From: Candidatus Aenigmatarchaeota archaeon
GTDB lineage: Archaea; Aenigmatarchaeota; Aenigmatarchaeia; CG10238-14; SCSR01
DNA length: 64,000 bases
NCBI GenBank assembly: GCA_039000425.1
Contig: JAWBPV010000005.1
Span: 5,652 to 69,651, forward strand
Direction of reading: 5' to 3'
The position numbers and the translations under genes were made by a program. Positions 1,794 to 64,000 of this stretch are shown in pieces. Numbering within the stretch: position 1 is the stretch's first letter; the number at the start of each line of letters is the position of its first letter. The notes under the pieces are model-generated. The model searched no databases and was not told the DNA's origin. It saw only the letters and a program-made list of their open reading frames with translations.

Positions 1794-2327
1794 TTAAATT
1801 CGTGTGACAAGCTCGTCCAACTTTCTCCTAGGCGTTGGTTTTGGTTCTTCAGCAGGATATCCTATGGGAATTAAAGCTATTGGGATCAATCCTTCAGGGT
1901 TCCCCAATATTCTTAAAACTTCTCCATCATCGAAAGCACCAACCCAACAAGACGCTAAACCTAGATCAACAGCAGCTAACTGAGCGTAAGCTGCGGCTAT
2001 TGTTGCGTCTTGAATTGAATACAAGCTTCTCCCTCTTTTTCCGTATTTCCTACCAGATCTTTCTGGGTTGGCACAAAAAACTAAGACAACAGGAGCTTCT
2101 GCCACGAAGCTTTGAGCGAAAGACGCTAAAGCCAATTCCCTTTTCTTCTTTTCATCTTGAACTAAAAATATCTCATACGCCTGCAATTGGGAGAATAAAT
2201 TCAATTCCCTGCAGATGGAGCCGAGTTTGCGACTCCAAGTATCTCTTTTATTTTGTCTTCCTCAATTGGTCTACTAGTGAAAGCCCTAACAGAATGCCTT
2301 CTTTTAATTACTTCCTTGAATTCCATT
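1794..2327 (-). pseudogene. nitroreductase-family gene interrupted by TGA plus frameshift
   Basis: The N-terminal 41 codons (MEFKEVIKRRHSVRAF...SAPSAGN, ATG at 2327) end at an in-frame TGA. The remainder (LQAYEIFLVQ... 136-aa ORF 1794-2204) continues in another frame. Removing ~17 nt (2187-2203) restores the continuous motif SAGNLQ typical of nitroreductases. Confidence 0.6.
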
Positions 2328-3270: not shown

Positions 3271-3352
3271 TGCTATTACTATAACACCATTTTACCATAT
3301 CTGACTTTCGGAACTTCATTTCCGAAATTTCCGATAAACGTTAAAAAACAGT

Positions 3353-4462
3353 CTAACTACTCCTTATTTTCTTAAGTAGCCTTTCTTTCGCAATTTCCAA
3401 TGCAGCATCTCTGGGCAAAATATTTTCTTTCTTTGCTTTCTTCAACACAAGCTTAGTATTCTTCTTTATCTTCTTTTCAACTAAAGCAAACATCTTATTT
3501 TCATCATATCCTCTGTATTCGCAGTAAGAAGAAATTAGGCCTCCAGCATTAGCAACAAAATCAGGAACAACCAAAATTCCTCTTTCATGCAAAATCTTTT
3601 CGATATCTGGCTTACAAGGTATGTTGGCAGCTTCTACTATTATCCTTGCTTTAATCTCGTTAACATTATTTTCATTTATAACGTCTGGCAAAGCAGCTGG
3701 AATTAAAACATCCACGGATAACTTAAAAATTTCTTGGTTTGATAAAACTTGACCTGGTTGATAATTTACTACTGAACCTGTCTGTTTCTTGATCTCAAGT
3801 AACTTCTCGATATCCAAACCTTCTGGATTGTATATCGTGCCTTTACTATCAGAAACTGCAACAATTCTAGCACCAGCTTGAGATAAAAATTTTGCAGCAA
3901 AAGAACCCACATTTCCAAATCCTTCTACAGCGACTGTAGCTTTGGTTATATCAATCTTAGAAAATTTTGCTGCCACTAACGTTGAATGGAAAACTCCGAA
4001 TCCTGTTGAACCAAGTTCATGTGGCAAACCCCCTAGCTCTTTAGGTTTTCCTGTTACCGACTTCAAAGAGCCATTTCCTTCAACAAACCACTTCATTTCT
4101 TGCTCACCTGTATTCACATCAGGTGCTCCAATGTAGTACTTCGGGGCTATACCGCGTAAAGCTCTACCGAAAGCTCTCATGAGTTCAGCTTTTTGTTCTA
4201 CGTTCATTTTCTTAGGGTCGGCAACTATACCAGATTTAGCGCCACCAAAAGGAAGTTTTGCTAGAGAGCATTTTAAAGTCATTATCCTGGCAAGCCTGAA
4301 GACTTCTTCAACAGTAACAGAAGGTGTCATCCTTATACCGCCTTTCCCTGGTCCTAGTGTAGTATTATCGATAACTAAAATTCCTTTCAATCCCACTTTA
4401 TGGTTGTAAACTTGAATTATCTTCTCAGGACCAAGTTCATCAGCAACCTTTTCCAACTCCAT
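3353..4462 (-). CDS. Glu/Leu/Phe/Val-family amino-acid dehydrogenase (NAD(P)+)
   Basis: 369 aa. GKGGIRM and FGGAKSG substrate-domain motifs, GFGNVG Rossmann motif. Its length is closer to Leu/Val dehydrogenases than to hexameric GDH. Confidence 0.8.
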   Translation of the reverse strand: MELEKVADELGPEKIIQVYNHKVGLKGILVIDNTTLGPGKGGIRMTPSVTVEEVFRLARIMTLKCSLAKLPFGGAKSGIVADPKKMNVEQKAELMRAFGRALRGIAPKYYIGAPDVNTGEQEMKWFVEGNGSLKSVTGKPKELGGLPHELGSTGFGVFHSTLVAAKFSKIDITKATVAVEGFGNVGSFAAKFLSQAGARIVAVSDSKGTIYNPEGLDIEKLLEIKKQTGSVVNYQPGQVLSNQEIFKLSVDVLIPAALPDVINENNVNEIKARIIVEAANIPCKPDIEKILHERGILVVPDFVANAGGLISSYCEYRGYDENKMFALVEKKIKKNTKLVLKKAKKENILPRDAALEIAKERLLKKIRSS

Positions 4463-9857: not shown

Positions 9858-12800
9858 TCAGCTTTTACTCTTCCTCAAAGCTTCGAGTAAAAGTTTTCTT
9901 TCGATTTTAGCAACTTGTAATCTAACTTTATCTATAGCGTCAATGTTCACCGAAATGCTATCTATCCCTGCTTTAACCAAAAATTCAACGAATTCAGGCA
10001 AATTGCTCGGAGCTTCTCCACAAATCGAAGTTTCAACGTTATAACTTTTACAAACTTTTATCACATACTTTATCAACTTTTTAACACCAGAATGTGTTTC
10101 TGTGAAAATTTTTGCAAGTTTCTCGTTATTCCTATCTATCCCTAAAACAAGTTGACTCAAGTCGTTGGTACCGAAGCTTATGAAATCTATCCCTTCTTTG
10201 CAAAAATCTTCTATCGTTAGAGCAGCTGCCGGTGTTTCAACCATGATGCCGATTTCACAACTCGTTGGCAAACCAACCTCTTTCGCTATTTCTCTCGCTT
10301 TTCTCAATTCTTCGACAGAAATAACGAAGGGAAGCATAACATGGACGTTATTCAAACCTTCTGCGTGAAGCCTTTTTATAGCTTCGAACTCTGCTTTCAA
10401 TAGTTCTGGCTCATCTAAACTTCTCCTTATACCATGCCATCCAAGCATCGGGTTATCTTCTCTAGGTTCATTTTCCCCACCTTCTAAGTTTCTGAATTCA
10501 TCGCTTCTCGCATCTAAACTACGAACCCACACTGGCTTAGGATGAAAAGCTTTTGCTACCGGTCTTATACCATTCAATAAAATTTTTACGTATTCTTCAG
10601 TTTTTCCCTCCTTCACAAGCTTTGCCGGGTGAATTCCAGCTTTTGTTATCATATGTTCTATCCTTAGCAAACCAACACCATCTACTTTTCTTGCTATCTC
10701 TTCAACATTTTCAGGAAAAGCAAGATTAACTTTGATTTGTGTTACCGTAAGCTTATCCAAGGCAGGAAGTTCTTCTTCGAAAACTTTAACTTCCGGTCTT
10801 TTGATCTCAATCTTACCGGAATAAACTATTCCATTATAAGCATCAACAGTAACTTCTTGACCATCTTTCAAAACTTTTGTAGCAGTTTGTGTACCAACTA
10901 TGCATGGAATTCCCATTTCCCTACTAACTATTGCTGCATGACAATTTGAAATTAGCAAAGGGGTGTATCTTTTAGTGAACACAACATAATTTTTGTTAAT
11001 TTCTTCATCAGCTTCAACTTCAAAGTTAAATACTTCGGTTTCGAATGTTTCACCAGTTTCCTTAACTCTCAACATGGTTAAGTTTGAGTTCAATATACTT
11101 TTGAGTTCTTCTTTTTCTGTTTCTCCCAGCATAGGCAAGACTCTTTTTTCAACTTTATTTTTATCGATTAGAAGGTTCTTCCTTATGTAAGGCTTTATTC
11201 TCCCCTTCCAGTTTGCTACCTCTTCTAATCCTTCAAGAATTTGTTTAGCCGCAAAGAATTTAGTTCCAGTTTTCCTTTCTTTCAACTCTGTTTTAACTCT
11301 TTTACATCTTTGTAAAATTTCGTTTGTCCTTTCTACAATCTGAACATTCCAAATATCTCTATTTTTAGTTATTTGTGGGAGAATTCCCAGATTTAAACAA
11401 GTTATTACTATTCCTCTTAATATGTTTTCATCTGAAACGTATATTTGAATTCTATTACCAGAGGCTGTCCCATCTCCGTCGACAAGTCCTGCAAGAAAAG
11501 CTAGTGAGGTGCTCTCATTGAGGAATAAACACCAAGAACTTAAGTGTTGATAGATTTTTTCTAGCATCAAGGCGGGATAGAGTCTAGTTGATATGTAATC
11601 GCATGCCATCCCAATAACTTTTCTTCCCCTTATTTCTGTTCTGACTACTTTTTCTTTAGGTCCGCTAAACTCATAACCAAAAATTTCTTTAAAATAGTTT
11701 ATAACAGTGTTGATGTAATCAACTTTTGATTCTTCTTCTTTTTGAGTAAATATGACACAACCTCTTCTTAAATTTCCAGTTTTTCCTTTAAAAATTTTCC
11801 AATAGCCATCGGAAAGGATACTGCCAACTAAATATCCAAGTTTCTCGTTACAAATTTTACATTCAAACGGTAGAGTAAAAGGTACACAAACAGCTAAATT
11901 CTTGTTTAAAATTTCTTGGACCTCTTTTTTAACTAATTTTCTCTTTTCATAAGTGAAAATTTTATGATCAGGAGTTATTCTTATGGAGTTATCTTTGATC
12001 CTTCCAGTTTGTGAAACAGAAATTTCTATAGTTTTAGCAACTCTTCTAAAAGTTCTTTTAATTTTCTTCCAAACAGGTTTATTTTCAAAACAATCAAAAG
12101 ATAGGATATAAACTTTCTCTTTATTCATAACTTTTTCGTAAAGTTCTTTTGCGGTAACAAAACCTTTTGGTGTTAAAAGAAAAGTATCGCCAGATATACA
12201 TGTTCTACCACCAGCATCAGTTATTATCGCGGCACACTTGCTCATAGTTGGTACTAAATCAGGACTTGTCATTTCTGTAACGAGTATATCACCTTTCTCC
12301 ACTTTCGTTATATCTTGTAAACCGTGCACTATTTTCACTTTGCCAGAAGCTATTCCAGGAGAAACACCCAGACCTTTTATCAAGATCTCACCTTCAACTT
12401 TCATTTCTTCTTTCTTCCCAACAGCAGTTACTGCTCTCGCTTGAACTATGAAAATTCTACCTTTTTCCAGGGCAAATTCTATATCTTGCGGTTTACCGTA
12501 ATGCTTTTCTATAATTTTTCCATATTCAGCCAGCTGTAATATTTGATCATCAGTTAAAACTTGAACGTTAACTTTCTTTTCAGCAACCGGTAACACTATG
12601 GTTTTATCAGTTGCCAGATCTCTAACCCTCATCTTCTCTTTCCTACCTATCTTTTTCTCCAAAATTCTTCCGTCTTTTGAGACTCTGTAGAAATCTGGCT
12701 CGACTTCACCAGAAACTAAACTTTCTCCCAAACCCCAGGTTGCTTCTATAACAATTTCATCTTCACCTGTTGTTGGATTTACTGTGAACATGACACCAGA

Positions 12801-13409
12801 AGCATCAGCATTCACCATTTTTTGAACCACAACTGCAATACTAGCATGCTTTATGTTGTTTTTTTCCCTGTAGAAAATTGCTCTAGGTTCATACAAACTT
12901 GCCCAGCATTTCTTCACCGCTTCAAGATAATCCTTTACTCCTTTAACGTTCAAAAAACTTGCCTGCTGGCCTGCAAAGCTAGCTTGTGGCAAATCTTCGG
13001 CTGTAGCGGAACTTCTAACAGCAACTAAAGCGTAATCCCTACCAGCAGCTATTAGCTCCAAAGCTTTTGGTGTTATTATCTCTTCTGTGAAAGACAATTC
13101 ACGATAAGCATCTATCAATTCACTCCTCATACCAATCGGAAAATCTTGTGAAGAAATAAGCTCCTTGATTTTTTTAGAAGTTTCAAGTAGCTGTTGTGTG
13201 TTGTCTACATCGCAAGCATCTATTAATTCTTGAATTTTTTCTTTTATTCCACCCAATTCTATGAATTTTTCAAAGGCTTTTGTGGTTATCACGAAACCTG
13301 GGGGAACAGGCATTTTCATCCTAGTTAATTCACCAAGATTTGCCCCTTTTCCCCCAGCTATGTTTATAGAATCTTTGTTCAATTGTTCAAACCATGCTAC
13401 GAATTCCAT
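9858..13409 (-). CDS. ppsA: phosphoenolpyruvate synthase precursor containing one intein
   Basis: 1183 aa. N-terminal GGKGANLGEL...MPVPPGF ATP-grasp domain. The phosphohistidine loop GGRT/CHAAIVSREMGIP is split by a 419-aa insertion. Exteins total 764 aa. Confidence 0.9.
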   Translation of the reverse strand: MEFVAWFEQLNKDSINIAGGKGANLGELTRMKMPVPPGFVITTKAFEKFIELGGIKEKIQELIDACDVDNTQQLLETSKKIKELISSQDFPIGMRSELIDAYRELSFTEEIITPKALELIAAGRDYALVAVRSSATAEDLPQASFAGQQASFLNVKGVKDYLEAVKKCWASLYEPRAIFYREKNNIKHASIAVVVQKMVNADASGVMFTVNPTTGEDEIVIEATWGLGESLVSGEVEPDFYRVSKDGRILEKKIGRKEKMRVRDLATDKTIVLPVAEKKVNVQVLTDDQILQLAEYGKIIEKHYGKPQDIEFALEKGRIFIVQARAVTAVGKKEEMKVEGEILIKGLGVSPGIASGKVKIVHGLQDITKVEKGDILVTEMTSPDLVPTMSKCAAIITDAGGRTCISGDTFLLTPKGFVTAKELYEKVMNKEKVYILSFDCFENKPVWKKIKRTFRRVAKTIEISVSQTGRIKDNSIRITPDHKIFTYEKRKLVKKEVQEILNKNLAVCVPFTLPFECKICNEKLGYLVGSILSDGYWKIFKGKTGNLRRGCVIFTQKEEESKVDYINTVINYFKEIFGYEFSGPKEKVVRTEIRGRKVIGMACDYISTRLYPALMLEKIYQHLSSWCLFLNESTSLAFLAGLVDGDGTASGNRIQIYVSDENILRGIVITCLNLGILPQITKNRDIWNVQIVERTNEILQRCKRVKTELKERKTGTKFFAAKQILEGLEEVANWKGRIKPYIRKNLLIDKNKVEKRVLPMLGETEKEELKSILNSNLTMLRVKETGETFETEVFNFEVEADEEINKNYVVFTKRYTPLLISNCHAAIVSREMGIPCIVGTQTATKVLKDGQEVTVDAYNGIVYSGKIEIKRPEVKVFEEELPALDKLTVTQIKVNLAFPENVEEIARKVDGVGLLRIEHMITKAGIHPAKLVKEGKTEEYVKILLNGIRPVAKAFHPKPVWVRSLDARSDEFRNLEGGENEPREDNPMLGWHGIRRSLDEPELLKAEFEAIKRLHAEGLNNVHVMLPFVISVEELRKAREIAKEVGLPTSCEIGIMVETPAAALTIEDFCKEGIDFISFGTNDLSQLVLGIDRNNEKLAKIFTETHSGVKKLIKYVIKVCKSYNVETSICGEAPSNLPEFVEFLVKAGIDSISVNIDAIDKVRLQVAKIERKLLLEALRKSKS
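10944..12200 (-). mobile_element. intein (419 aa) with LAGLIDADG homing-endonuclease domain inside ppsA
   Basis: Starts with Cys (CISGDTF) directly after GGRT. Ends with ...LLISN followed by extein Cys (CHAAIV). Internal block-B-like TPDHK. Two LAGLIDADG motifs (LGYLVGSILSDGYW; LAFLAGLVDGDGTASG). Junction codons verified at 12198-12200 (TGT) and 10941-10946 (AAT|TGT). Confidence 0.85.
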
Positions 13410-24853: not shown

Positions 24854-24950
24854 CGCCGAGGGTGGGATTCGAACCCACATGCCCACGAAGGGCCCCAGCT
24901 TTCAGTCAAAGACTCAAGGCTGGTGCACTACCAGGTTATGCGACCTCGGC
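24854..24950 (-). tRNA. tRNA-Ser (anticodon TGA), long variable arm, ~12-nt intron in anticodon loop
   Basis: Acceptor GCCGAGG/CCTCGGC. Discriminator G. Anticodon stem CCAGC/GCTGG encloses 19 nt (7 loop + 12 intron). Variable arm GCCC-TTCGT-GGGC. T-arm GTGGG-TTCGAAT-CCCAC. Confidence 0.7.
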
Positions 24951-39334: not shown

Positions 39335-39470
39335 CCTAATTTTTTATCGTTCGCTCGTATCTTTTTCAAATTTGTAGCGATCTTGTTAACAAGTAAAATG
39401 TTAGGAATAAAACCTTGTGCGCCAGCCGAACAGGTAAAGAAGGGTTTAATTCTCGTAAATACAAAATTCA

Positions 39471-40709
39471 TTGCAAAAAATGGTCCACGAAATAGTCCCC
39501 TATCAAATAGTCCCCAAAATAGTCTTCAAATTTTCAACAAACAAAGTGAGAATTATGAGTGAACTTTCAGAAAGAGAAAAGCAACTGATCGATCAATTCC
39601 TCAGAGACATACAACTCGAAAACGGTAAAAAATTGAGCGATAGAAGAATTAAAAAGTATGTCATTTGCTTGAAAACTGTCAAGAGAAAGTTTCTTCAGAA
39701 TCTAATCAATCCAACTTTGGAAGATATCAAGAATGCCGTGATAAGCATTGAAAAAAGCAATTACAAACCAAAAACCATCAAAGATCTCAAAGTGATTTTG
39801 AGAAGATACTTGAAGTGGTTAAACCGAATTAATAGCGTTAATTTAGATCTTTCATGGTTTAAAGTAGGGAATGCTGAAGCATCTTTGCCTGAAGTTTTAA
39901 CTGAAGAAGAGGTAAAGAAGTTGATTGAAGTTACGGATAACTCAAGAGATAGAGCGCTTGTCTCTGTTTTGTATGAAGGAGGTTTGAGGGCAGGAGAATT
40001 GCTAAACATGAAACTTAAAGATGTGAAATTCGATTCTTTAGGATGTGTGATAAAAGTTAACGGAAAAACAGGAGAAAGAATAGTGAGGTTGGTTTTCAGC
40101 AGAAAAGCTTTATGTGAATGGATTGAAAAGCATCCTTTTAAGAATGATCCTGAATCACCACTTTGGGTAACAAAGTATGATTTCAAAAACGGTAGGGAAA
40201 CATTCAAGCAACTGAAATACGGAGGGCTTAAGCTATTGCTTAAAAAACTAGGAGAAAGGGCAGGGATCAAGAAGAGGATACATCCTCACTTGCTAAGACA
40301 TTCGAGGGCAACTCATGTCGCTCCTTTCCTTTCTGAAAGCGTCATGAAAGCATATTTCGGATGGGCTATGGATTCCAAAATGGTTAAGACTTATGTTCAC
40401 TTGAGCGGTAAGGATGTTGACAATGTAGTTTTGAAAATGTATGGAATAGAGAATAATGGAAAAAAATCAACTTTGTTTGATTTAATCGATTGTCCAAAGT
40501 GCCAGCAAAAAATTTCAAGGTTAGATGATTTTTGTCCATACTGCAATTATCCCATAAATCAAAGGTTCGCAATAAACACGGAAAATGATAAGAAAACAAT
40601 CGATATCGTGATCAAGTTCTTACAAATTTTGGCAGAAGAAAATCCAAAGATAAAGGAAAAGTTTTACGAGTTGGTGAAAAAAGAAAACGCATTCGACTTG
40701 TTTAGATAA
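39471..40709 (+). CDS. tyrosine recombinase / phage-type integrase with C-terminal zinc ribbon (paralogue 1)
   Basis: HPHLLRHSRATH (R-H-R-H box), downstream YVHLSGKDVD, CPKCQQ...CPYCNYP zinc ribbon. The real start is likely Met at MSELSEREKQ. Confidence 0.85.
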   Translation: MQKMVHEIVPYQIVPKIVFKFSTNKVRIMSELSEREKQLIDQFLRDIQLENGKKLSDRRIKKYVICLKTVKRKFLQNLINPTLEDIKNAVISIEKSNYKPKTIKDLKVILRRYLKWLNRINSVNLDLSWFKVGNAEASLPEVLTEEEVKKLIEVTDNSRDRALVSVLYEGGLRAGELLNMKLKDVKFDSLGCVIKVNGKTGERIVRLVFSRKALCEWIEKHPFKNDPESPLWVTKYDFKNGRETFKQLKYGGLKLLLKKLGERAGIKKRIHPHLLRHSRATHVAPFLSESVMKAYFGWAMDSKMVKTYVHLSGKDVDNVVLKMYGIENNGKKSTLFDLIDCPKCQQKISRLDDFCPYCNYPINQRFAINTENDKKTIDIVIKFLQILAEENPKIKEKFYELVKKENAFDLFR

Positions 40710-40902: not shown

Positions 40903-41094
40903 TTAGACTACTCCTAGTTTTTTAAGACATTCGTCACAAACCCAACCTCTTATTCTTTTCTCATTTGTTTTTAAATTCATCCATCCCCAATTCGTCATTG
41001 CCATAAATTCTTCGACATTAACGATAGAAGTATTAAAAATGTGTTTTAACTGCTTTTTACAAATCAAACACTCAATCATACCTTCATATTTCAT
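40903..41094 (-). CDS. small zinc-ribbon protein
   Basis: 63 aa. CLICKK...CDECLKK. Confidence 0.4.
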   Translation of the reverse strand: MKYEGMIECLICKKQLKHIFNTSIVNVEEFMAMTNWGWMNLKTNEKRIRGWVCDECLKKLGVV

Positions 41095-41116
41095 GTTTTC
41101 ATATTGAATTTAAATA

Positions 41117-42418
41117 CATTTAAATGGAACACTTACTTCTATTTGTGAAACTATGAAAAATTTTCGCAAAAACTGTTGTTATTATTATAATTGAAACTCA
41201 CAAAATCTTGGTTTCTTGTTTTTCATAGTTAGAATTTAAAATCAACAAATATTTGTCTGTTCTTTTGTCTAACCAACTCTCTGTTTGTTTCTTAAACTGT
41301 TTTAAAACTTTCTGTTTTTCCACTTCTCATACATTTCAAGCAAAAACTTAACAAAGTCTTCTTCCAAGTTAAAGCTTTCCTTTATGTCCAAAACCATACC
41401 GCAGTTCGAACAGTATTTTGAATTTACTGTGTTTATGTAACCGCACCTGAAACACTTGTTTAGCTTAGTTTCCTGTTTTTCCTCAACCTTCAAACCATTT
41501 ATTTCCAACAGTTTGTTTTCTATGTCTTTACCTGACAAATGAACATAAACACTAGCCATACTGCTACCCATGGACCAACCAGAAAAAACTTTCAGTTCTT
41601 GTTCTGTTAAATGTTTAGCTAATTCTGTAAGCCTTGAATGTCTGAACAAGTGTGGGTGTACTTTTTTCTTTATTCCAGTTTTATTGACAAGTTTTCTCAA
41701 CAGTTTTCTCACATACTGATAACTCATGTGCTGGTTTTCTTCTTTGTGCAACTTCAACCAAACATAACTTTCTGGTTCATTTCTTAACTTGTGATTTTCC
41801 AACCAGTTTCTGAAGTAAGGTACTGACTTTATCAACCTTATCCTTCTCTGTCCTGTCTTACCTTTCACTGTTATCACGCAACCATACTGGTCAAAACTCA
41901 CTTGTCTTATTTTCAAAGGAAGTAATTCACCTATCCTGCAACCACTTTCATACAGTACAGAAACAAAAGCTTTGTCCCTAGGGTTTTCACAGTTTTCAAC
42001 CATTTTCCATACTTCTTCTTCAGTCAAAAGTTCTTCTGGTAGTTTGTTATTCTTCGTGTCAAACCTCACTTTCAACTCAAAATTTTTCCCAACAAACTCA
42101 AGAAACTTCTTGACACAGTAATACCTTAACTTTTTCGTTTTAGGTTTGTATCCGTTCAAACTTAACAGAAAGGTTTCTACGTCTTCTTCTGTCACATCTT
42201 CGAAGTTTTTGTTTATTGTGCTAATAAACTGTTTTATTGAAATCAAGTACTTCAACCTTTGAACCAAACTTAAACCTTCTGCTTCTTTCTTTGTTAAGAA
42301 ACTCAAAACAAGTTTCTTGTTGTTTTCTGTTGTATTCCAGTTCTTAATGTTTTCTAGTTTTCTGTTGTATGTTTGCAAAGTGTTGTAGATATCGGAGAGA
42401 ATTGTACTTGAGTTAAGA
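41117..42418. repeat. inverted repeat copy A (~1.3 kb, contains integrase 2 and ~190 bp of 3' flank)
   Basis: Reverse complement aligns with 62715-63985 through the entire integrase ORF plus flanking non-coding DNA. The two copies diverge beyond ...ccatttaaatgt. Confidence 0.8.
41302..42378 (-). CDS. tyrosine recombinase / integrase with C-terminal zinc ribbon (paralogue 2, ~95% identical to paralogue 4)
   Basis: 358 aa. HPHLFRHSRLTE. YVHLSGKDIEN. CFRCGYINTVNSKYCSNCG. Confidence 0.9.
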   Translation of the reverse strand: MQTYNRKLENIKNWNTTENNKKLVLSFLTKKEAEGLSLVQRLKYLISIKQFISTINKNFEDVTEEDVETFLLSLNGYKPKTKKLRYYCVKKFLEFVGKNFELKVRFDTKNNKLPEELLTEEEVWKMVENCENPRDKAFVSVLYESGCRIGELLPLKIRQVSFDQYGCVITVKGKTGQRRIRLIKSVPYFRNWLENHKLRNEPESYVWLKLHKEENQHMSYQYVRKLLRKLVNKTGIKKKVHPHLFRHSRLTELAKHLTEQELKVFSGWSMGSSMASVYVHLSGKDIENKLLEINGLKVEEKQETKLNKCFRCGYINTVNSKYCSNCGMVLDIKESFNLEEDFVKFLLEMYEKWKNRKF

Positions 42419-42527
42419 TGGGCCTGCGGGGATTTGAACCCCGGACCAACGGGTTTCTTTCATCTTTTATCAAAGCTTTTAGCTTAAGCTAAAAGCCCGC
42501 TGCTCTACCATGCTGAGCTACAGGCCC
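42419..42527 (-). tRNA. intron-containing tRNA, most likely tRNA-Lys (anticodon TTT), ~35-nt intron
   Basis: Acceptor GGGCCTG/CAGGCCC. D-arm GCTC-AGCATGGTA-GAGC. Anticodon stem GCGGG/CCCGT encloses 42 nt beginning CTTTTA. T-arm CGGGG-TTCAAAT-CCCCG. Discriminator A. Confidence 0.6.
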
Positions 42528-53405: not shown

Positions 53406-55454
53406 TTAACAATCTTCTCCAAACCATTCAGGTTTCTTTCTCTTAAATTTAAAGTCTGTGAGAAACATAAATAGGAGAAAGCTACAAAGGAAAGCTAGCA
53501 AGATTATCAAAGCTACATGAGCATCTGAGAGCACAAACTTACCAGTTATTATTTCTTTCTCTTGAGGTAGGGTTATGCTGGTTGTGGTCGTGCTGGTTGT
53601 GGTGATCGTTGTGCTGGTTGTGGTGGTAATACATGCACCATCCTTACATCCAAAACCACAATACTCAACATGTACCCAACTCTTGCTACAATCAGAATAT
53701 TGGTAGAGTTGAAGTTTCCAATTACCTGAACACTTGAATTCGTCTAAGAACTTAGCAACACATCTTTCCGCTTTCTCTCTAACCGAAAATGTTTCTGAAT
53801 AAATTGTCGCACTTTTATCACAACCCGAATAATAAACTTTAACCCTATAATTTCCGGGCTCTCGAACAGTTGCCCAACAACTTAAACTACTTGTTGTCTT
53901 TCCAGGCACGTAAACAGAGTTTTCGCTACACTTCATGGGTATACAATACGGGTCTGTTTTGCAGAGATATGCATCAAGGTTCACGTAACCTCCAAGATCA
54001 CCATAGTTTGTTATTTCAACTGTAGCTTTTACAACATCGCCCACAATATAGTTAAATTGCGAACTAACACTTGCCCATATACTACAAGGCTTTCCGGTTG
54101 AACAACTACCATCTACACATCCATACTCACAGTATTTCCAATTAATCCACTCTACAGAACAATCAGAATATCTATATTCTCTTTGTAACCAGTTCCCGTA
54201 ACACCTGAAGTTGTTCAAATAACCTTCTTCACAACCTGGTAAGCATGCTCCATTGTAACATCCATACTCACAGTATTTCCAATTAACCCATTCGGTGGAA
54301 CAATCATTGTAAAGATACTTTCTCTGTAACCAGTTCCCGTAACATCTATAATCATCCAAGAATTGTGGAACACAAGTTGATATTTTTACACAAACACCAG
54401 AATCACAAGTATAACCTGGAGCACAGCCTTGGTAACAAGAGCCTATTGCGACCCATCTCCTATCTTTGACCACATAAGTACATGTGGCTCCAAAGCACGT
54501 ATAATCCCTATATTCTTGCTCTTTTTCTCTAGTTCCAATTCCACATTCATATCCGTTCATATTACACCTTTCCCTTCCAGTATCGTACCATCCATCTTTT
54601 TCCATGATGCAATAACCATTATTACAAACATAGCCTGGTGGACAATTCTCGATTATAAGCTCCCAACCAGAGCCATCCGTTCTACATTTCTCGTAAGCAA
54701 CTTGAGTTGAACAAGCACAATACCTATTCCTTATCTCACCAGGATTACAAACCTTTATCCTGGTTAAAACAAGTTCTACCCTCTTAACCTCAGAACAAGA
54801 GCAGGTTATGGTCCTTGTGTCTGTTGAATAACCTTCTTTGCTCGCAGAAACCACATGAGTTCCAACCGAAACTTGTTTAAGGACATGGGAAGAATAAGCT
54901 ACGTAATTACCATCCACGTAAATATTCGCTTCTAAAGGTATGCCACGGTCATCTTTTACGTAGATATCCAGATGACAATATTGTTCAACTTGTTCCAAGA
55001 CTTCAACTTTGGCTTTCCAGCAAAAGCAAGGATCTTGAACAATTTGATAGCAATCACTACTTACCCTGACTTCAACTATTCCTGTGTAACCATAAGGTGC
55101 ATAACTTGTGAGATCGTATTCGGCTGAAGCAGAATCACCTGAAACAACTCTATATCCCGAAGAAAAGCAATTAGGTGCAGTAGAAGACCATGCTTGGTAC
55201 CAATTGCTAGGAGAATAAGGAAGACCATCCAGGTTTTTATAAGTTGATCCAATTTTTATCCAGGCTGTGAAGCATCTTGGGTATAAATCCCCCATGGAAT
55301 TGTAAACAGTAACTTTAATCCTTCTGGCATTAGATACTTGAAAAATTGCAGATTTGTACTTATAAGTTTCATCTTGTCCATCGCAAATAGCTAGAGTTAT
55401 TCCTGGGAGTATCAAAAGGAAGGAGAAAATCATGGCCATGATTTTGAATTTCAT
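53406..55454 (-). CDS. large Cys-rich secreted surface protein with three ~40-aa Cys-rich repeats, Thr-rich linker, LPQ motif and C-terminal TM anchor
   Basis: The likely start is MKFKIMAMIFSFLLILPGITLA (signal peptide). Repeats FLDDYRCYGNW...CEYGCYNGAC, YLNNFRCYGNW...CEYGCVDGSC and FLDEFKCSGNW...CGFGCKDGAC. Tail TTTTSTTITTTSTTTTSITLPQEKE-[TM]-KFKRKK. Confidence 0.6.
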   Translation of the reverse strand: MKFKIMAMIFSFLLILPGITLAICDGQDETYKYKSAIFQVSNARRIKVTVYNSMGDLYPRCFTAWIKIGSTYKNLDGLPYSPSNWYQAWSSTAPNCFSSGYRVVSGDSASAEYDLTSYAPYGYTGIVEVRVSSDCYQIVQDPCFCWKAKVEVLEQVEQYCHLDIYVKDDRGIPLEANIYVDGNYVAYSSHVLKQVSVGTHVVSASKEGYSTDTRTITCSCSEVKRVELVLTRIKVCNPGEIRNRYCACSTQVAYEKCRTDGSGWELIIENCPPGYVCNNGYCIMEKDGWYDTGRERCNMNGYECGIGTREKEQEYRDYTCFGATCTYVVKDRRWVAIGSCYQGCAPGYTCDSGVCVKISTCVPQFLDDYRCYGNWLQRKYLYNDCSTEWVNWKYCEYGCYNGACLPGCEEGYLNNFRCYGNWLQREYRYSDCSVEWINWKYCEYGCVDGSCSTGKPCSIWASVSSQFNYIVGDVVKATVEITNYGDLGGYVNLDAYLCKTDPYCIPMKCSENSVYVPGKTTSSLSCWATVREPGNYRVKVYYSGCDKSATIYSETFSVREKAERCVAKFLDEFKCSGNWKLQLYQYSDCSKSWVHVEYCGFGCKDGACITTTTSTTITTTSTTTTSITLPQEKEIITGKFVLSDAHVALIILLAFLCSFLLFMFLTDFKFKRKKPEWFGEDC

Positions 55455-55528
55455 GAATAAGTTATCAAAGAAAAACTTTAAATACTTTTTTATAGGTAAA
55501 CTTTTTTCGTTCAAAAGTGTAATTTAAA

Positions 55529-57903: not shown

Positions 57904-57975
57904 TGGACCGGCCGGGATTCGAACCCGGAGCCTTCTCCTTGCGAAGGAGACGATCTACCTTTGATCTACCGGCCC
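57904..57975 (-). tRNA. tRNA-Ala (anticodon CGC)
   Basis: Acceptor GGGCCGG/CCGGTCC with a G3:U70 pair. Anticodon arm TCTCC-TTCGCAA-GGAGA. T-arm CCGGG-TTCGAAT-CCCGG. Discriminator A. No intron. Confidence 0.85.
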
Positions 57976-58023
57976 TCAAATAAAACATAAGTAAAAATAA
58001 GATAATATTAAAATCTGTGAAAA

Positions 58024-58115
58024 GGGCACGTAGCTTAGCCTGGTTGGAGCAACCGAAGCTTTAGCTGTTGAAGCTGATAACCGGTAGGTCCCCGGTTCAA
58101 ATCCGGGCGTGCCCA
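58024..58115 (+). tRNA. intron-containing tRNA, probably tRNA-Ile (anticodon GAT) with a ~17-nt intron at a non-canonical position (30/31)
   Basis: Acceptor GGGCACG/CGTGCCC. D-arm GCTT-AGCCTGGTTG-GAGC. T-arm CCCGG-TTCAAAT-CCGGG. Removing AAGCTTTAGCTGTTGAA gives anticodon arm ACCGG-CTGATAA-CCGGT. A GAAGCT direct repeat sits at both junctions. Confidence 0.55.
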
Positions 58116-58178
58116 CTTTCCTTGGTTTAGAAGGATAGAAAAGTATTTAAGGGGATAGTTAGTATAAAAAATTAGTCT

Positions 58179-58802
58179 ATGAAAGGTATTTTCATAGCAT
58201 TCGAAGGTATAACAGGTTCTGGGAAAAAAACTCACATAAAACTCATAACGCAAGAGCTCTTGATGAGGAAAATCCCTTTCACAACTTTAAGCTTTCCAGA
58301 TTTTGAAAACGATATAGCAAGACTTACAAAAAGACTTCAACTAGATGCTTTCACTTTATCTTTACTATACGCTGCGGACAGAAGTTATTCTCAAGAAAGG
58401 ATAAAGAATTTACTCGAGGCTGGAAATGTTGTGATAACTGATAGGTATTGTTACAGTAATTTCGCTTATCAAGCAGCTAGGGGTTTACCTTTGGAATGGT
58501 TAATGGAAGTTGAAAAATTCTTCATAAAACCAGACATCGTTTTCTTGATAGATGTACCTGTTGAAGTTACGATGAGTAGGATCAAACAGTTGAGCTTAGA
58601 AGATTTCACGAAAAGGGAGATACTGGAAAGAATAGAGAAAGAGAGGGAAATTCTGGAGAAAACTAGGGAAATTTTCCTCAGACTTGCGAAGGAGAATAAA
58701 GAAGCGAAATGGTTCGTAATCGATGCCACAAAAAGTATAGAAGAAGTTCATCAAGAAATTTGGTCCATTCTTGAGCCTGAATTGGAAAAAATTAAAAGCT
58801 AA
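58179..58802 (+). CDS. tmk: thymidylate kinase
   Basis: 207 aa. FEGITGSGKKT P-loop. DRYCYSNFAYQ. Confidence 0.85.
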   Translation: MKGIFIAFEGITGSGKKTHIKLITQELLMRKIPFTTLSFPDFENDIARLTKRLQLDAFTLSLLYAADRSYSQERIKNLLEAGNVVITDRYCYSNFAYQAARGLPLEWLMEVEKFFIKPDIVFLIDVPVEVTMSRIKQLSLEDFTKREILERIEKEREILEKTREIFLRLAKENKEAKWFVIDATKSIEEVHQEIWSILEPELEKIKS

Positions 58803-58837
58803 AAATTTTTAACTTAATTTTCAAATATTTTTTATAC

Positions 58838-58944
58838 GCCCCGTTCGTCTAGTCCGGTCAAGGACGCGGCCCTTTCGATAAATCTCGAAAGGTTTGATGA
58901 AAAGATGATAGGCTGCAACCTGGGTTCAAATCCCAGACGGGGCA
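58838..58944 (+). tRNA. tRNA-Glu (anticodon TTC) with ~32-nt intron
   Basis: Acceptor GCCCCGT/ACGGGGC. D-loop TAGTCCGGTCAAG (Glu-like). Anticodon stem CGGCC/GGCTG encloses 39 nt starting CTTTCG. The intron 3' part TCGAAAGG pairs with exon CCTTTCGA. T-arm CTGGG-TTCAAAT-CCCAG. Confidence 0.7.
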
Positions 58945-58966
58945 TGCTTATTTCTTCAATTCCCAT

Positions 58967-60208
58967 TTGGCTTTTATAAGCAATCAAAACAAGGCTAAAA
59001 TCATGCCTGAACTTTATGGTTATGAGAAAGGAATAGAAAGGGGATTGTTGGCAATTAAACAAATAGATGAAAGAACTTATGAAAAAGTGAAGGAGTTTGT
59101 GAGGAAGTTGGAAACTAACAATTATTCGAAAGGAAGGATTTACAAGTACATTTATTTCTTGAAAACTCTCAGAGAGTTGCTTGGAAAAGATTTTAGTGAA
59201 GCTAAAAAACAAGATGTTGAAGAATTGGTGATAAAGCTTAACAACAATAACTATTCTGAAGCTTCAAAATCGGATTTCAAGAAAATTTTGAAATTTTACA
59301 TGAGGTGGCTTAAGTTTGGAAAGCTTGATGGGAAATATCCTGAAGAAGTAGAATGGATTAAAACAACGATCAAGAAAAACAACGAGAAAGTTCCTGAGCA
59401 AATTTTAACTCAGAAAGAAGTTGAATTGATTGCAAATCAAGCAGAAAATTCGATGGAAAGAGCCTTTGTTTTGTGCTTGTATGAAACAGGTTGCAGGATC
59501 GGAGAATTTTTGAACATGAGAATTAAAGATATAAGCTTTGATCAGTATGGATGCTACATTTTGGTTTCGGGAAAAACAGGATGGAGAAGAGTAAGGGTTT
59601 TAGATTACAGCAAGGATTTGATAAGTTGGTTGGATTCTCATCCTTTCAAATCAAATCCTGAAAGCTTTGTTTGGGTAAACCCAAAGAATCAAAAGAGATT
59701 GCTTCCCGATGATGCTAATCACATGTTAAAAAATTTGGCCAAGAAAGCAGGAATAGCAAAAGCATGCAATCCCCATGCTTTCAGGCATGCAAGGGCTACT
59801 CATTTGGCTAAAATACTAACTGAACAGCAATTGAAAGTTTACTTTGGATGGGCTAAAGATTCAGGAATGGCTTCTGTTTATGTTCATTTATCAGGAGAAG
59901 ATGTTGATGAATCTTTGTTGAAAGCAAAGGGAATAAAAGTAGAGAAAGAAAGGGAAGAAGTTAAGCCTCTTGTGAGAATATGCCAAAAATGCAATGAACC
60001 GAATTCTTCTTTATCCCATTTCTGTAAAAAATGTGGTTCTCCTTTGGATTTGAAGATAGTTCTTGAGTTGGATGAGCAGAGGAAAAGGTTTGAAGAATTG
60101 CTAAGGGATTTCTTGGTTTATTATGCTGAAAAAGATAAGAATTTCAAGAAAGTTCTTGTTCAGTTTATCAAGGAAAGGAAAGCGGAAAATTTATTCTTTA
60201 GTGGTTAA
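58967..60208 (+). CDS. tyrosine recombinase / integrase with C-terminal zinc ribbon (paralogue 3)
   Basis: 413 aa. NPHAFRHARATH. YVHLSGEDVDE. CQKCNEPNSSLSHFCKKCG. The likely start is MPELYGYEKG. Confidence 0.85.
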   Translation: MAFISNQNKAKIMPELYGYEKGIERGLLAIKQIDERTYEKVKEFVRKLETNNYSKGRIYKYIYFLKTLRELLGKDFSEAKKQDVEELVIKLNNNNYSEASKSDFKKILKFYMRWLKFGKLDGKYPEEVEWIKTTIKKNNEKVPEQILTQKEVELIANQAENSMERAFVLCLYETGCRIGEFLNMRIKDISFDQYGCYILVSGKTGWRRVRVLDYSKDLISWLDSHPFKSNPESFVWVNPKNQKRLLPDDANHMLKNLAKKAGIAKACNPHAFRHARATHLAKILTEQQLKVYFGWAKDSGMASVYVHLSGEDVDESLLKAKGIKVEKEREEVKPLVRICQKCNEPNSSLSHFCKKCGSPLDLKIVLELDEQRKRFEELLRDFLVYYAEKDKNFKKVLVQFIKERKAENLFFSG

Positions 60209-60276
60209 TAAGAAATTACAGCTTAATATTAAAGTATGAGAACTTCCAAAGTTTAAGAATTGATTTAAAATTCTTA

Positions 60277-61503
60277 CTAACAAGTGAAAAACTCAATGTC
60301 CCCATTATATTTCGGTGTATATAATGTTTTATCAAGTGGTATGCCGAATAGTTCATTTCCCCAATCTTCTATACACTCATCAAAATAGGGAGATTCGCAA
60401 AAATACAGCATTATTTGGTGGCCCCGCATGAATTTGTGGGGCAAGTGAATTTTTTCAAATTTTGGATATGGGTTAGGTATTACTATTTCGTCCATTATCC
60501 TCCAATCCTCTATCGGAAAATTAATTTCGATGATTTTTTCAACATTTTGCTCTACTATTGTGTTTGGAAGACCATGTAAGATAATATTAGGTCCGAATTC
60601 ATCGGAAATGTTTTTCTGTTCCAAATATGAAAGATAATAAGTTTTTTCTGGACTCCCCTTAATTTTAAGAAGTATTTTATTTTCGGTGCAAGCAATTTTT
60701 TCTACTTGAGGAGGGTTGTAAAATCTACCTTCACTTATATGGATAAATGAAGGTGGTTTTTCAGGGTAAAATGTAAAATTAGAGGGCGGTGAAATATCAA
60801 ATGGTACTATTTTAGAAAAGAAAATAGCTTCCATAGAAAATATTTCCTCACCGTTAACTCTGGCTTTAAATAACAATGGAATGCCTACTTCCTTATCATA
60901 ACAAATGTCAATAGTTGAGTTATCAGGTAAATTAAATTCAATCAGGTAACAATCTCTATCAACAATTTTTACTGTTTTTTTTAATTCAAGCTTAATTTTT
61001 TCACCCATTGCTTCAAGCAGACGATTTAAGTAATCTACGACCTCTTTAACACTCCGAAAATTTAATCTGGAATAGTTTATGTCTATCGGAGATGTTATAA
61101 AGTAAGGATAACCTATGCAATTCTCTTCGTTTTTTTCACATTCAATTACTAAGATTGTATTATCACTTTCATTAAATAATTCATAAACAACAGAAATTTT
61201 CTCTCGACTTTCGTTTTCATATAAAATATATATTTCTGATTTGGTGAAAGGAAACCTGTGAATTAAATTGTCTTTTCCAACTCTCTTCCCACCTAAGTAA
61301 AGGTCATAGATTGCTTGAAATTCTTTTAAAGATTCAAATTTGTTTGTGCTTTCTTTGATTATTTCTATTGCTGAGACGGGTTTAGAAAACAATAAGGCCC
61401 ATATTAATAGAATACCAAAGGCTGTAACAAGGCCAAAAATAAAATAAAATTTTGGTCCTAACACTATTGTAACAGTTTTATAAGCGTATTTTCTTTTTCT
61501 CAT
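60277..61503 (-). CDS. membrane-anchored hypothetical protein (element cargo)
   Basis: 408 aa. N-terminal TM helix (FYFIFGLVTAFGILLIWALLF). Large extracytoplasmic-looking domain. No motif. Confidence 0.5.
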   Translation of the reverse strand: MRKRKYAYKTVTIVLGPKFYFIFGLVTAFGILLIWALLFSKPVSAIEIIKESTNKFESLKEFQAIYDLYLGGKRVGKDNLIHRFPFTKSEIYILYENESREKISVVYELFNESDNTILVIECEKNEENCIGYPYFITSPIDINYSRLNFRSVKEVVDYLNRLLEAMGEKIKLELKKTVKIVDRDCYLIEFNLPDNSTIDICYDKEVGIPLLFKARVNGEEIFSMEAIFFSKIVPFDISPPSNFTFYPEKPPSFIHISEGRFYNPPQVEKIACTENKILLKIKGSPEKTYYLSYLEQKNISDEFGPNIILHGLPNTIVEQNVEKIIEINFPIEDWRIMDEIVIPNPYPKFEKIHLPHKFMRGHQIMLYFCESPYFDECIEDWGNELFGIPLDKTLYTPKYNGDIEFFTC

Positions 61504-61588
61504 AACTCTTTTTATTATTTAGTATGCTTTATTATAAATTTAAAGGTTAGTGAGGTTGTCTGGACAGATCAACATTGTTACAATAAGA

Positions 61589-61759
61589 TTATTTTTCCAG
61601 CTTGACATCTTTTAGTAAATTCGCAGTAACTTTCAAAGCAAACCTTATCGCTTTTGTTCTTGTTTTAATTTTTAAAGCTTTTTCTATAATTTCAAAATTC
61701 TTCAAATCCTCTTCCTTTTCCCTGAAAGTTATCGTCATGCTATCACTATCATTTAGCAT
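61589..61759 (-). CDS. candidate ribbon-helix-helix (CopG-like) small regulator (56 aa), not in ORF track
   Basis: MLNDSDSMTITFREKEEDLKNFEIIEKALKIKTRTKAIRFALKVTANLLKDVKLEK. The beta-strand TITF plus two helices with T-R-T-x-x-I-R-x-A-L match the RHH pattern. It lies upstream of the 408-aa ORF on the same strand. The plus-strand track ORF 61602-61901 is its antisense. Confidence 0.45.
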   Translation of the reverse strand: MLNDSDSMTITFREKEEDLKNFEIIEKALKIKTRTKAIRFALKVTANLLKDVKLEK

Positions 61760-62008
61760 GAATTCGATAGCTTATAAATTCCAAATTTTCAGTTTGCTAT
61801 CAAAAAAAGCTTATTTCAACATCAGCGAAAAACCAACTTTTCAAGCTTTGAAATACATGCTTATTCTGAAATCTTTTTTATTCAATTTTCTATCAAATTG
61901 AAAACTGCTTTTCAAATGATCAAGATTGCATGAGAAAGGTGATATGAAAGAAGCGTATTACATATATCTGATTCCCTACATAGTTAAAAAACTTTCAGGC
62001 ATGATAAT

Positions 62009-62545
62009 TTGGGAGTGATATTCACAGCTCCAGACTTAAACTTCATAGATGCTCAAACTAGGAAGCTCTTCCATGCTTACATCGAGTGTTTGATGATAGA
62101 TTATGAAAAGCAACAAGTTATCGCTAAGTACATGGAAATTCAGAACAATCCCAGGTTTGGTAAGGAATACTTTAAGTACCCAAGAATAAGAGTTGGCAAT
62201 GAGATCATTGTTGTGAACAGGATTTTGATTAACAAGCCAAGCGAAAAGTTGATAGAGGATTATGAAGTTAAAAAGAGGGAATTCACCAGAAACTTGAAGA
62301 TTGAAGTTGAAAAAAGCTTGAAAAAAGAGAGGGAAGTGAAGGAAATGTACACTTTTTCGCTTGATGAAGTTGTTGAAGATGCTTTAAAGAACTTGAATTC
62401 TTTAATTTCAAGATACAAGGGAAGAACATTCATCGATCCTGATTTGATAAGGGCTAAGTACAATGTTGGCATACACAGAGCTAAAATGATCAAGAAAGTT
62501 TTGGAAAAGAGGGTAAACTTGAGTGAAATAAAGCAAAATACTTAA
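62009..62545 (+). CDS. hypothetical protein (element cargo; start uncertain, TTG at 62009 or ATG at 62093)
   Basis: 178-aa ORF. No motif. Confidence 0.4.
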   Translation: MGVIFTAPDLNFIDAQTRKLFHAYIECLMIDYEKQQVIAKYMEIQNNPRFGKEYFKYPRIRVGNEIIVVNRILINKPSEKLIEDYEVKKREFTRNLKIEVEKSLKKEREVKEMYTFSLDEVVEDALKNLNSLISRYKGRTFIDPDLIRAKYNVGIHRAKMIKKVLEKRVNLSEIKQNT

Positions 62546-62579
62546 TTTTTTAACTAAATTATCAGAGAAAAATCAAAAA

Positions 62580-62624
62580 TTCAACATTTGTTGAATTATA
62601 GATAAATTATTTCAACATGTTGAA
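62580..62624. promoter_or_regulatory. pair of palindromic sites TTCAACA(N0-2)TGTTGAA spaced ~30 bp apart
   Basis: ttcaacatttgttgaa (62580-62595) and the perfect 14-bp palindrome ttcaacatgttgaa (62611-62624), about 85 bp upstream of the repeat/attR junction. Confidence 0.4.
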
Positions 62625-62714
62625 TTTTCAGGTTTTGTGAAAAGATAACCTTTTTATTTCTTAAAAACAATAGTAAATTAGCCTGTGGGAATTGAAGAAA
62701 AGCATGTTCTCAGG

Positions 62715-63985
62715 CGGGGCATACTAACTCAAGTACAGTTCTCTCCGATATATACAACACTTTGCAAACATACAACAGAAAACTAGAAAACATTAAGAAC
62801 TGGAATACAACAGAAAGCAACAAGAAACTTGTTCTGAGTTTCTTAACAAAGAAAGAAGCAGAAGGTTTAAGTTTGGTTCAAAGGTTGAAGTACTTGATTT
62901 CGCTAAAACAGTTTGTTAGCACAACAAACAAAAACTTTGAAGATATGACAGAAAAAGACATGGAAAAGTTTCTACTGAGTTTGAATGGTTACAAACCAAG
63001 CACAAAACACACAAGGTATTACTGTGTTAAGAAGTTTCTTGAGTTTGTTGGTAAGAAGTTTGAATTGAAAGTGAGGTTTGACACGAAGAACAACAAACTA
63101 CCAGAAGAACTTTTGACTGAAGAAGAAGTATGGAAAATGGTTGAAAACTGTGAAAACCCTAGGGATAAAGCTTTTATTTCAGTACTGTATGAAAGTGGTT
63201 GCAGGATAGGTGAACTACTTCCTTTGAAAATAAGACAAGTGAGTTTCGACCAGTATGGTTGTGTGATAACAGTAAAAGGTAAGACAGGACAGAGAAGGAT
63301 AAGGTTGATAAAGTCAGTACCTTACTTCAGAAACTGGTTGGAAAATCACAAGTTAAGAAATGAACCAGAAAGTTATGTTTGGTTGAAGTTGCACAAAGAA
63401 GAAAACCAGCACATGAGTTATCAGTATGTGAGAAAACTGTTAAAAAAACTTGTTGAGAAAACTGGAATAAAGAAAAAAGTACACCCACACTTGTTCAGAC
63501 ATTCAAGGCTTACAGAGTTAGCTAAACACTTGACAGAACAAGAACTGAAAGTTTTTTCTGGTTGGTCCATGGGTAGTAAAATGGCTAGTGTTTACGTACA
63601 TTTGTCAGGTAAAGACATAGAAAACAAACTGTTGGAAATAAATGGTTTAAAAGTTGAGGAAAAACAGGAAACTAAGCTAAACAAGTGTTTCAGGTGCGGT
63701 TACATAAACACAGTAAATTCAAAATACTGTTCGAACTGTGGCATGGTTTTGGACATAAAGGAAAGCTTGAACTTGGAAGAAGACTTTGTTAAGTTTTTGC
63801 TTGAAATGTATGAGAAGTGGAAAAACAGAAAGTTTTAAAACAGTTTAAGAAACAAAAAAAAGACTTGGTTAGACAAAAGAACAAACAAATGAAGTTTGTG
63901 AGTTTAAGTTTACAATATAAACAACAGTTTTTTGCGAAAATTTTTCCTAGTTTCACAAATAGTAGTAAGTGTTCCATTTAAATGT
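62715..63985. repeat. inverted repeat copy B (contains integrase 4 and 3' flank)
   Basis: See copy A. Homology starts at cat|actaactcaagtaca (62720) and is still present ~150 bp past the stop codon. Confidence 0.8.
62762..63838 (+). CDS. tyrosine recombinase / integrase with C-terminal zinc ribbon (paralogue 4)
   Basis: 358 aa. ~95% identical to the minus-strand copy at 41302-42378. Confidence 0.9.
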   Translation: MQTYNRKLENIKNWNTTESNKKLVLSFLTKKEAEGLSLVQRLKYLISLKQFVSTTNKNFEDMTEKDMEKFLLSLNGYKPSTKHTRYYCVKKFLEFVGKKFELKVRFDTKNNKLPEELLTEEEVWKMVENCENPRDKAFISVLYESGCRIGELLPLKIRQVSFDQYGCVITVKGKTGQRRIRLIKSVPYFRNWLENHKLRNEPESYVWLKLHKEENQHMSYQYVRKLLKKLVEKTGIKKKVHPHLFRHSRLTELAKHLTEQELKVFSGWSMGSKMASVYVHLSGKDIENKLLEINGLKVEEKQETKLNKCFRCGYINTVNSKYCSNCGMVLDIKESLNLEEDFVKFLLEMYEKWKNRKF

Positions 63986-64000
63986 GGTTAGATTGAGTTA

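Follow-up and report, generated by a model that had tools for sequence, protein, structure and literature searches.

The window analysed here is a 64-kb stretch of chromosomal DNA from a metagenome-assembled genome (MAG) of Candidatus Aenigmatarchaeota (DPANN). It has 35% G+C, contains tRNA genes with introns and carries the core genes for SecY, ribosomal protein S5, MetRS, ValRS, eRF1 and an intein-containing phosphoenolpyruvate (PEP) synthase; the contigs nearly identical to it come from hot spring MAGs of Candidatus Aenigmatarchaeota. This report is concerned with the tRNA-Glu(UUC) gene close to its right end and with the two integrase genes that follow, int3 and int4. The segment that holds int3 (58946-62722, 3,777 bp) is referred to as the Int3 element, and int4 belongs to a second element behind it. 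A first-pass annotation, made from the sequence alone, had placed a cluster of tRNA-Ala, an intron-containing tRNA, tmk and tRNA-Glu at this locus, and this cluster (1,041 nt in total) was borne out by Rfam, ARAGORN and Pfam. The features of the region are listed below, with open reading frames abbreviated as ORFs and ribbon-helix-helix as RHH; copy A, L003, L008 and L018 are introduced in the text.

57904-57975, minus strand: tRNA-Ala(CGC) (Rfam, ARAGORN), in the tRNA cluster, unused as integration site
58024-58116, plus strand: intron-containing tRNA (Rfam, 48.5 bits; miscalled by ARAGORN)
58179-58802, plus strand: tmk (thymidylate kinase), host gene (Pfam PF02223, 3e-37)
58838-58944, plus strand: tRNA-Glu(UUC) with a 32-nt intron, putative attL (Rfam, ARAGORN); core CAGACGGGGCA at 58934-58944, T at 58945
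58943-58965: left inverted-repeat arm CATGCTTATTTCTTCAATTCCCA, also in L003 and L018
59003-60208, plus strand: Int3, Xer-like tyrosine integrase with C-terminal zinc ribbon (Pfam PF00589, 4e-22; XerA-like 4a8e, 1e-22)
60277-61503, minus strand: 408-aa predicted membrane protein, ORFan cargo (weak DUF7329 and phrog_2721 matches); a 97-aa ORF takes its place in L003
61589-61759, minus strand: 56-aa ORF, earlier called RHH; kept with its upstream region in the L003 element (92% nucleotide identity over 61606-61964)
61988-62545, plus strand: 3' remnant (residues 101-285) of the gene for a 285-aa DnaA-like P-loop NTPase, Walker A and B deleted
62578-62597 and 62611-62624: two palindromes with half-site TTCAACA, behind the NTPase remnant gene
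62686-62706: right inverted-repeat arm TGGGAATTGAAGAAAAGCATG, pairs with the left arm
62711-62722, plus strand: duplicated tRNA-Glu 3' core CAGGCGGGGCA plus T, putative attR of the Int3 element and also attL core of the Int4 element
62723-62763, plus strand: arm upstream of int4, about 41-42 nt (with T 62722), common to copy A (42377-42418) and L008
62762-63838, plus strand: Int4 (358 aa), integrase of the second element (copy B); protein identical to the L008 copy
63839-63994, plus strand: copy B tail, shared with copy A (41107-41301)

The tRNA-Glu site was compared with that of the sister contigs, namely those encoding a tmk protein identical to that of the window. Two of them (L001 and L002, from two sister MAGs) were 99.9% identical to the window in the tRNA-Glu region, up to position ~58952, and carried no integrase at the site. 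In both, tRNA-Glu is followed directly by TCTAATTCAAGTACAGTTCTCTCTGATATATACAACACTTT, and this sequence, taken together with the tRNA end, showed 91% identity over 56 nt to positions 62708-62763 of the window; host genes lie beyond, the first of them encoding a molybdopterin oxidoreductase. Compared with L001 and L002, 3,777 bp are inserted in the window at 58946-62722, and the start-to-start spacing of the tRNA-end repeat described below is also 3777. The search for an empty tRNA-Glu site in relatives, which the first-pass annotation had proposed as a check, was therefore positive, since the tRNA of L001 and L002 runs directly into the sequence that now stands at 62723-62763. These two contigs represent the unoccupied site of a type II integrative element.

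The right border of the insertion is marked by a copy of the tRNA 3' end. The sequence CTCAGGCGGGGCAT (62709-62722) was identical to the tRNA-Glu end CCCAGACGGGGCAT at 12 of 14 positions, as had been noticed before, and it was the sole other match with two mismatches or fewer on both strands of the 64 kb, against a chance expectation of 0.04. The duplication stands, but not its length of 14 nt. Identity between the tRNA and the fragment begins exactly at tRNA position 63 (CAGACGGGGCA-T versus CAGGCGGGGCA-T), so that the true core consists of 11 nt (tRNA positions 63-73) plus T. Copies of this core at 58934-58945 and 62711-62722, overlapping the tRNA 3' end, form the direct repeat of a type II element. 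The only difference between them is at position 66, where the fragment has the G of a sister species, whose tRNA-Glu has C7 and G66 and ends ...CCCAGGCGGGGCA; the mismatch would thus reflect a species polymorphism at this position.

The same boundary was found at other loci. Positions 39418-39428 of the window correspond to the final 11 nt of a tRNA-Gly; two sister contigs, L009 and L010, have this gene intact at the corresponding position. In L020 (1-4193, JGI Ga0105156_1001399), an unrelated and complete 4.04-kb element at tRNA-Gly, the 11 nt of tRNA positions 63-73 are repeated exactly (CGGCTGGCGCA). Besides an RHH-like ORF, it encodes an integrase similar to Int3 (51% identity) and a ParB-like zinc-ribbon protein. 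Similar tRNA-end repeats were present downstream in the loci L029, L052 and L080. Among the 74 metagenomic integrase homologues with enough upstream sequence, about 20 had a tRNA T-arm 66-130 nt upstream of the integrase gene (int); many different tRNAs were involved, and the T-arms had the same orientation as int. These boundaries suggest that strand exchange occurs in the final 11 nt of the tRNA gene. In L052 (~127-1650) and L080 (~2229-3900) the integrase gene was found alone between the tRNA and the downstream copy of its 3' end, and these loci are possibly int-only mini-elements or the beginnings of tandem arrays.

The agreement of these boundaries bears on the reading of the 12/14 repeat as a coincidence, with a strain-specific island that came from the sister species by homologous recombination and not by site-specific integration. 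Such an origin would account for the sister-species G66 of the fragment and would be in line with the other rearrangements at tRNA genes in this genome. It is nevertheless very improbable, given the low chance expectation, a boundary that fits to the base the 11-nt rule of L020 and of the tRNA-Gly remnant, and the presence of intact integrases.

Other relatives carry one or the other element at the same tRNA. In L003, from a third sister MAG, Int3 was present at the equal position with 99% nucleotide identity through int3, followed by divergent cargo (a 97-aa ORF, the conserved small ORF, a 241-aa ORF and an MCM helicase). The flanks in the sister species are syntenic and just 66-79% identical to the window. 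There, L018 has the Int3 left end directly after its tRNA-Glu (97% identity), and L008 has Int4 directly after a complete tRNA-Glu (99.7% identity), with an identical Int4 protein and no Int3 between. Hence, one tRNA-Glu site was observed in five occupancy states in two species, and the elements were 97-99.7% identical across hosts whose flanks share only about 75% identity. Together, these two results support the view that the site is a true integration hotspot, used by two elements independently of each other. The MAG QW472, which is the source of L003 and L009, encodes an identical 408-aa cargo protein (MEM5855758) on another contig and is probably a strain mixture with both variants of the Int3 element.

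A single composite element with two integrases, integrated once, in which the internal tRNA-like 14-mer is the element's own sequence, would agree with the adjacent and co-oriented Int3 and Int4 modules, with the position of the far end of the Int4 module beyond the window and with the tRNA-Lys island described below, which also has two integrases. However, Int4 adjoins a complete tRNA-Glu without Int3 in L008, Int3 adjoins tRNA-Glu with other cargo in L003 and L018, and the internal fragment lies exactly where the empty-site sequence resumes. A composite element is unlikely on this evidence.

The two arms at the ends of the Int3 element form a terminal inverted repeat that exceeds chance, none of 5000 random window pairs having reached the arm score. 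They lie just inside the two core copies, and joining the ends would give the order arm-core-arm, as expected for an attP. In their outer part, TCTTCAATTCCCA (58953-58965 and 62686-62698), the arms agreed with the T-arm of tRNA-Glu, GGTTCAAATCCCA, at 10 of 13 positions, a likeness that may be due to chance. A significant terminal inverted repeat, together with weak NCBIfam matches to tyrosine invertases, could also point to an invertible 3.8-kb cassette, with Int3 as an invertase acting on the 21-23-nt repeats. This is highly unlikely, since the whole segment is absent in the sister strains, a tRNA-core direct repeat is present at both ends, all three contigs with the left end (window, L003 and L018) show one orientation, and the arms flank the core as in an attP.

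The preferred explanation, which we regard as very probable, is that tRNA-Glu(UUC) is the attachment (att) site of at least two different small integrative elements of Aenigmatarchaeota, plasmid- or provirus-like, and that both are present here in tandem. This analysis observed that the site is empty in some relatives and occupied independently in others, that the core is repeated, that the catalytic residues are intact and that one cargo gene is truncated, as described below; from this we infer where strand exchange takes place, the circular form and the activity of the elements today. Each element encodes a Xer-like integrase whose gene is directly downstream of attL and co-oriented with the tRNA. 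The circular element would carry tRNA positions 63-73, the final 11 nt, as the site of strand exchange, and in the circularised Int3 element this core would be surrounded by the 21-23-nt inverted arms. Integration in the lambda or 'type II' archaeal mode would rebuild the tRNA at attL, leave int intact and mark attR with the 11-nt tRNA fragment. The second element, from 62711 on, would have the same fragment as its attL, its core carrying the G66 typical of the sister species. Insertion of Int4 into the attR of the Int3 element and later insertion of Int3 between the tRNA and Int4 both give the observed structure.

Several points weigh against tandem integration at tRNA-Glu. The core repeat is short and has one mismatch, and the window does not reach the right end of the Int4 element. 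Junctions of a circular or excised form were not seen, and searches of a viral collection with the arm and inverted-repeat patterns gave no match. The ~42-nt arm is also found, at 93% identity, at the 'empty' site of L001 and L002, which may be a naive site or an old scar. In the genome collection the arm pattern matched only the known empty-site contig.

A near copy of the second element lies in opposite orientation at a tRNA-Lys in the middle part of the window, next to a further integrase gene:

39418-40709, plus strand: tRNA-Gly 3' remnant (39418-39428, 11 nt, minus-strand sense) and Int412
39471-40709, plus strand: Int412, intact Phage_integrase ORF
41107-42527, minus strand: copy A, composed of tRNA-Lys(UUU) (42419-42527), arm, IntA and tail
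41302-42378, minus strand: IntA, intact Phage_integrase ORF

Copies A and B are 95% identical in inverted orientation (41284-42420 versus 62720-63856), and the similarity continues more weakly to 41107 and 63994. As the first-pass annotation had pointed out, both begin alike, copy A directly after tRNA-Lys(UUU) and copy B directly after the tRNA-Glu-like fragment. The arm upstream of int4 was identical to the sister-species copy, unlike the L001 version (93%), which argues that the arm travels with the element. L008 breaks off at the equivalent of 63999, where the similarity between copies A and B also ends, and because of this coincidence the window probably ends at the contig end. No other tRNA-Lys 3' fragment was found in the window as an attR for copy A. 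IntA and Int4 were identical at 341 of 358 positions, and 11 of the 17 differences were located in residues 48-99, within the N-terminal domain; IntA at tRNA-Lys and Int4 at tRNA-Glu are thus a candidate natural specificity switch, and the pair could be of use for mapping target specificity. A 63-aa zinc-finger ORF (CxxC...CxxC; 40903-41094, minus strand) separates the convergent genes of IntA and Int412 and lies just past the end of the A/B similarity.

The four integrases (Int412, IntA, Int3 and Int4) were the intact ORFs found in the 64 kb with Pfam Phage_integrase. All of them conserve R, K, HxxR, W and Y and have a SAM-like N-domain and a C-terminal four-cysteine zinc ribbon; the catalytic box H258-x-x-R261 was invariant in the homologue alignment. 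Int3 has 401 aa from the ATG at 59003 or 413 aa from the TTG at 58967. The TTG is probably not the start, since the gene calls of the sister contigs (401 aa) use the ATG and the homologues align from there. A start 22 nt past tRNA-Glu, as given in the first-pass annotation, is therefore correct only with the TTG, whereas the ATG lies 58 nt past the tRNA. In both Int3 and Int4 the full length and every catalytic residue are retained, as expected of the integrase of a type II element. The family comprised 1,114 homologues at E <= 1e-20, from DPANN, Bathyarchaeota, Thermoplasmatales and others.

The locus resembles the archaeal type II systems (lambda/pNOB8; PMC8371274) in that int is intact, att overlaps the tRNA 3' end, direct repeats are present and the tRNA is regenerated. 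The pNOB8-type integrases are defined by a YxxR box (She et al., summarised in PMC8371274). In contrast to their R...YxxR...Y signature, the integrases of the window have HxxR, together with a Phage_int_SAM N-domain (Xer-like) and a zinc ribbon, and the core is just 11 nt. Accordingly, of the 'pNOB8-like mode used twice' suggested by the first-pass annotation, the mode is retained (int intact, tandem arrangement), but the family is not. In the SSV-type (type I, 'suicidal') systems attP lies inside the int ORF and the gene is split on integration (PMC8371274), whereas here int has stayed intact, and the core precedes its start by 58 nt.

The closest solved structure was that of P. abyssi XerA (4a8e), which is also the best sequence relative (1e-22) and has the same catalytic residues. 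The proteins described here are ~100 aa longer, and against the NCBIfam XerA model they score 114-129 bits, far short of the 220-bit cut-off. Their genes vary between strains, neighbour tRNA genes and move together with cargo, which indicates that the proteins are integrases and not chromosome dimer resolvases; moreover, the gene is absent at the L001/L002 site and there are four paralogues in 64 kb, unlike what is expected of a XerA/XerC/XerD dimer resolvase. The nearest annotated mobile-element integrases were those of ThalV2, Geoglobus acetivorans pleomorphic virus 1 and haloarchaeal plasmids (29-33% identity, 81-95% coverage). The hosts of these elements belong to other phyla, however, and no pleolipovirus structural genes were seen here, the cargo being MCM and the DnaA-like NTPase.

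With respect to the cargo of the Int3 element, the 408-aa protein had no homologue but itself among 5.8 billion proteins. The 56-aa ORF, which had been taken for an RHH regulator, gave no Pfam, NCBIfam or PHROG match, and its single-sequence AlphaFold model was one long helix with a predicted local distance difference test (pLDDT) score of 85. The RHH fold was thus not confirmed, although the single-helix model does not speak against it, because RHH proteins fold as dimers. The '178-aa ORF' of the first-pass annotation does exist, but it is not an independent gene, since it corresponds to residues 101-285 of a 285-aa protein and is 5'-truncated. The full-length protein (P0124, 285 aa) has the Walker A motif GETGAGKS and matched phrog_5484 (DnaA-like) at 7e-11. 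Its first 100 residues had no match upstream of 61988, and the deletion breakpoint in the NTPase gene is at ~61965-61988. A sequence search of the PDB with the NTPase homologue gave nothing significant, and the structure model of P0122, a full-length homologue, had a pLDDT of 45 and was not used for a fold search. Inovirus-like proviruses have been reported in Aenigmarchaeota (PMC6813254). An inovirus pI-like reading of the NTPase was not adopted: the Zot match was weak, there is no C-terminal membrane segment and the best match was the DnaA-like phrog_5484.

Behind the NTPase remnant, the palindromes AATTCAACA-TT-TGTTGAATT (62578-62597) and TTCAACATGTTGAA (62611-62624) confirm the pair described in the first-pass annotation. 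The operator role assigned to them there is only one candidate, as they could be either an operator or an origin-type site.

Since its NTPase gene is 5'-truncated, the Int3 element is a deletion derivative, its source being an L003-like MCM/NTPase element, and it has retained int and both ends. Having lost the Walker A/B half of the NTPase gene and being without MCM, it is probably replication-defective on its own, and it may still be excisable.

The order of the chromosomal blocks around these integrases differs from that of the sister MAGs. In L001 and L002, tRNA-Glu is followed by 5.2 kb of host genes and then by window position 1, in the same orientation. In L009 and L010, the sequence past window position 39428 is an intact tRNA-Gly followed by helix-turn-helix (HTH), NifS and NifU genes, which in the window's own MAG are on another contig. 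The observed breakpoints (tRNA-Gly remnant/Int412, tRNA-Lys/IntA and tRNA-Glu/Int3 plus Int4) are all at tRNA 3' ends by integrases. From these contigs we infer a block interchange between the window genome and three sister MAGs, one block containing ValRS, eRF1 and tmk and the other SecY, ribosomal proteins and MetRS. Recombination between same-orientation elements at tRNA-Lys and tRNA-Gly would generate the observed junction, and re-insertion via the tRNA-Glu element would complete the interchange. Tentatively, and with some doubt, it is proposed that elements at tRNA-Gly, tRNA-Lys and tRNA-Glu, recombining homologously or by integrase catalysis, moved tens of kb of essential chromosome, possibly via a circular intermediate, and that two 95%-identical integrases switched target from tRNA-Glu to tRNA-Lys, their differences being mostly in residues 48-99.

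Two other readings were discarded. A stand-alone circular replicon of ~70 kb, suggested by the joining of tRNA-Glu to position 1 in L001 and L002, is at odds with the SecY, ribosomal protein, aminoacyl-tRNA synthetase and eRF1 genes of the window; a single inversion between copies A and B, as the cause of the rearrangement, does not agree with the unchanged relative orientation of the blocks. The tRNA-Gly remnant is joined the 'wrong' way to the region upstream of Int412, so that the integrase reads away from the fragment. This is unusual, because the tRNA-adjacent members of the family in the metagenome loci are co-oriented with the tRNA.

Related elements at tRNA genes, tandem occupancy of one site and strain-level breakpoints at such sites are also features of Sulfolobales and Thermococcales, and the inverted 95% copies found here could likewise recombine. 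Those lineages use SSV-type (self-splitting) or pTN3-type integrases, in contrast to the integrases of the window. Element-mediated rearrangements are known in Thermococcales from the TKV2/TKV3 inversion and from the pTN3 integrase (PMC8371274), whereas here a block interchange is proposed from contig comparisons alone.

Tandem tRNA-targeted integrative elements are well known, and this hotspot is of an ordinary kind that does not overturn current understanding. The new aspects are the host lineage, a family rule that is well defined and a possible connection with the reshuffling of chromosomes. Mobile elements of DPANN are poorly characterised, and the five occupancy states of one tRNA-Glu site in two species make this locus a clean natural experiment. 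It defines a widespread archaeal integrase family, an attachment rule (the last 11 nt of the tRNA) and complete elements of ~4 kb, and it hints that such elements reshuffle very small genomes.

Some further features of the window deserve mention. By manual reading, the tRNA at 58024-58116 seems to be tRNA-Ile(GAU) with a non-canonical intron within the anticodon stem, at position 30/31. Introns are present in this putative tRNA-Ile, in tRNA-Lys (42419-42527) and in tRNA-Ser (24854-24950), and two of these genes were called 'Stop' by ARAGORN. The PEP synthase/PPDK-like gene (1183 aa, 9858-13409) is split by an intein with a LAGLIDADG domain. A stand-alone HTH plus LAGLIDADG gene is located at 2308-3270, and the sister contig L001 terminates within this region, which suggests strain variability there. 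Finally, positions 53406-55514 encode a 702-aa Cys-rich protein, secreted or membrane-bound, with internal tandem repeats (54117-54347) whose copies are 82% identical.

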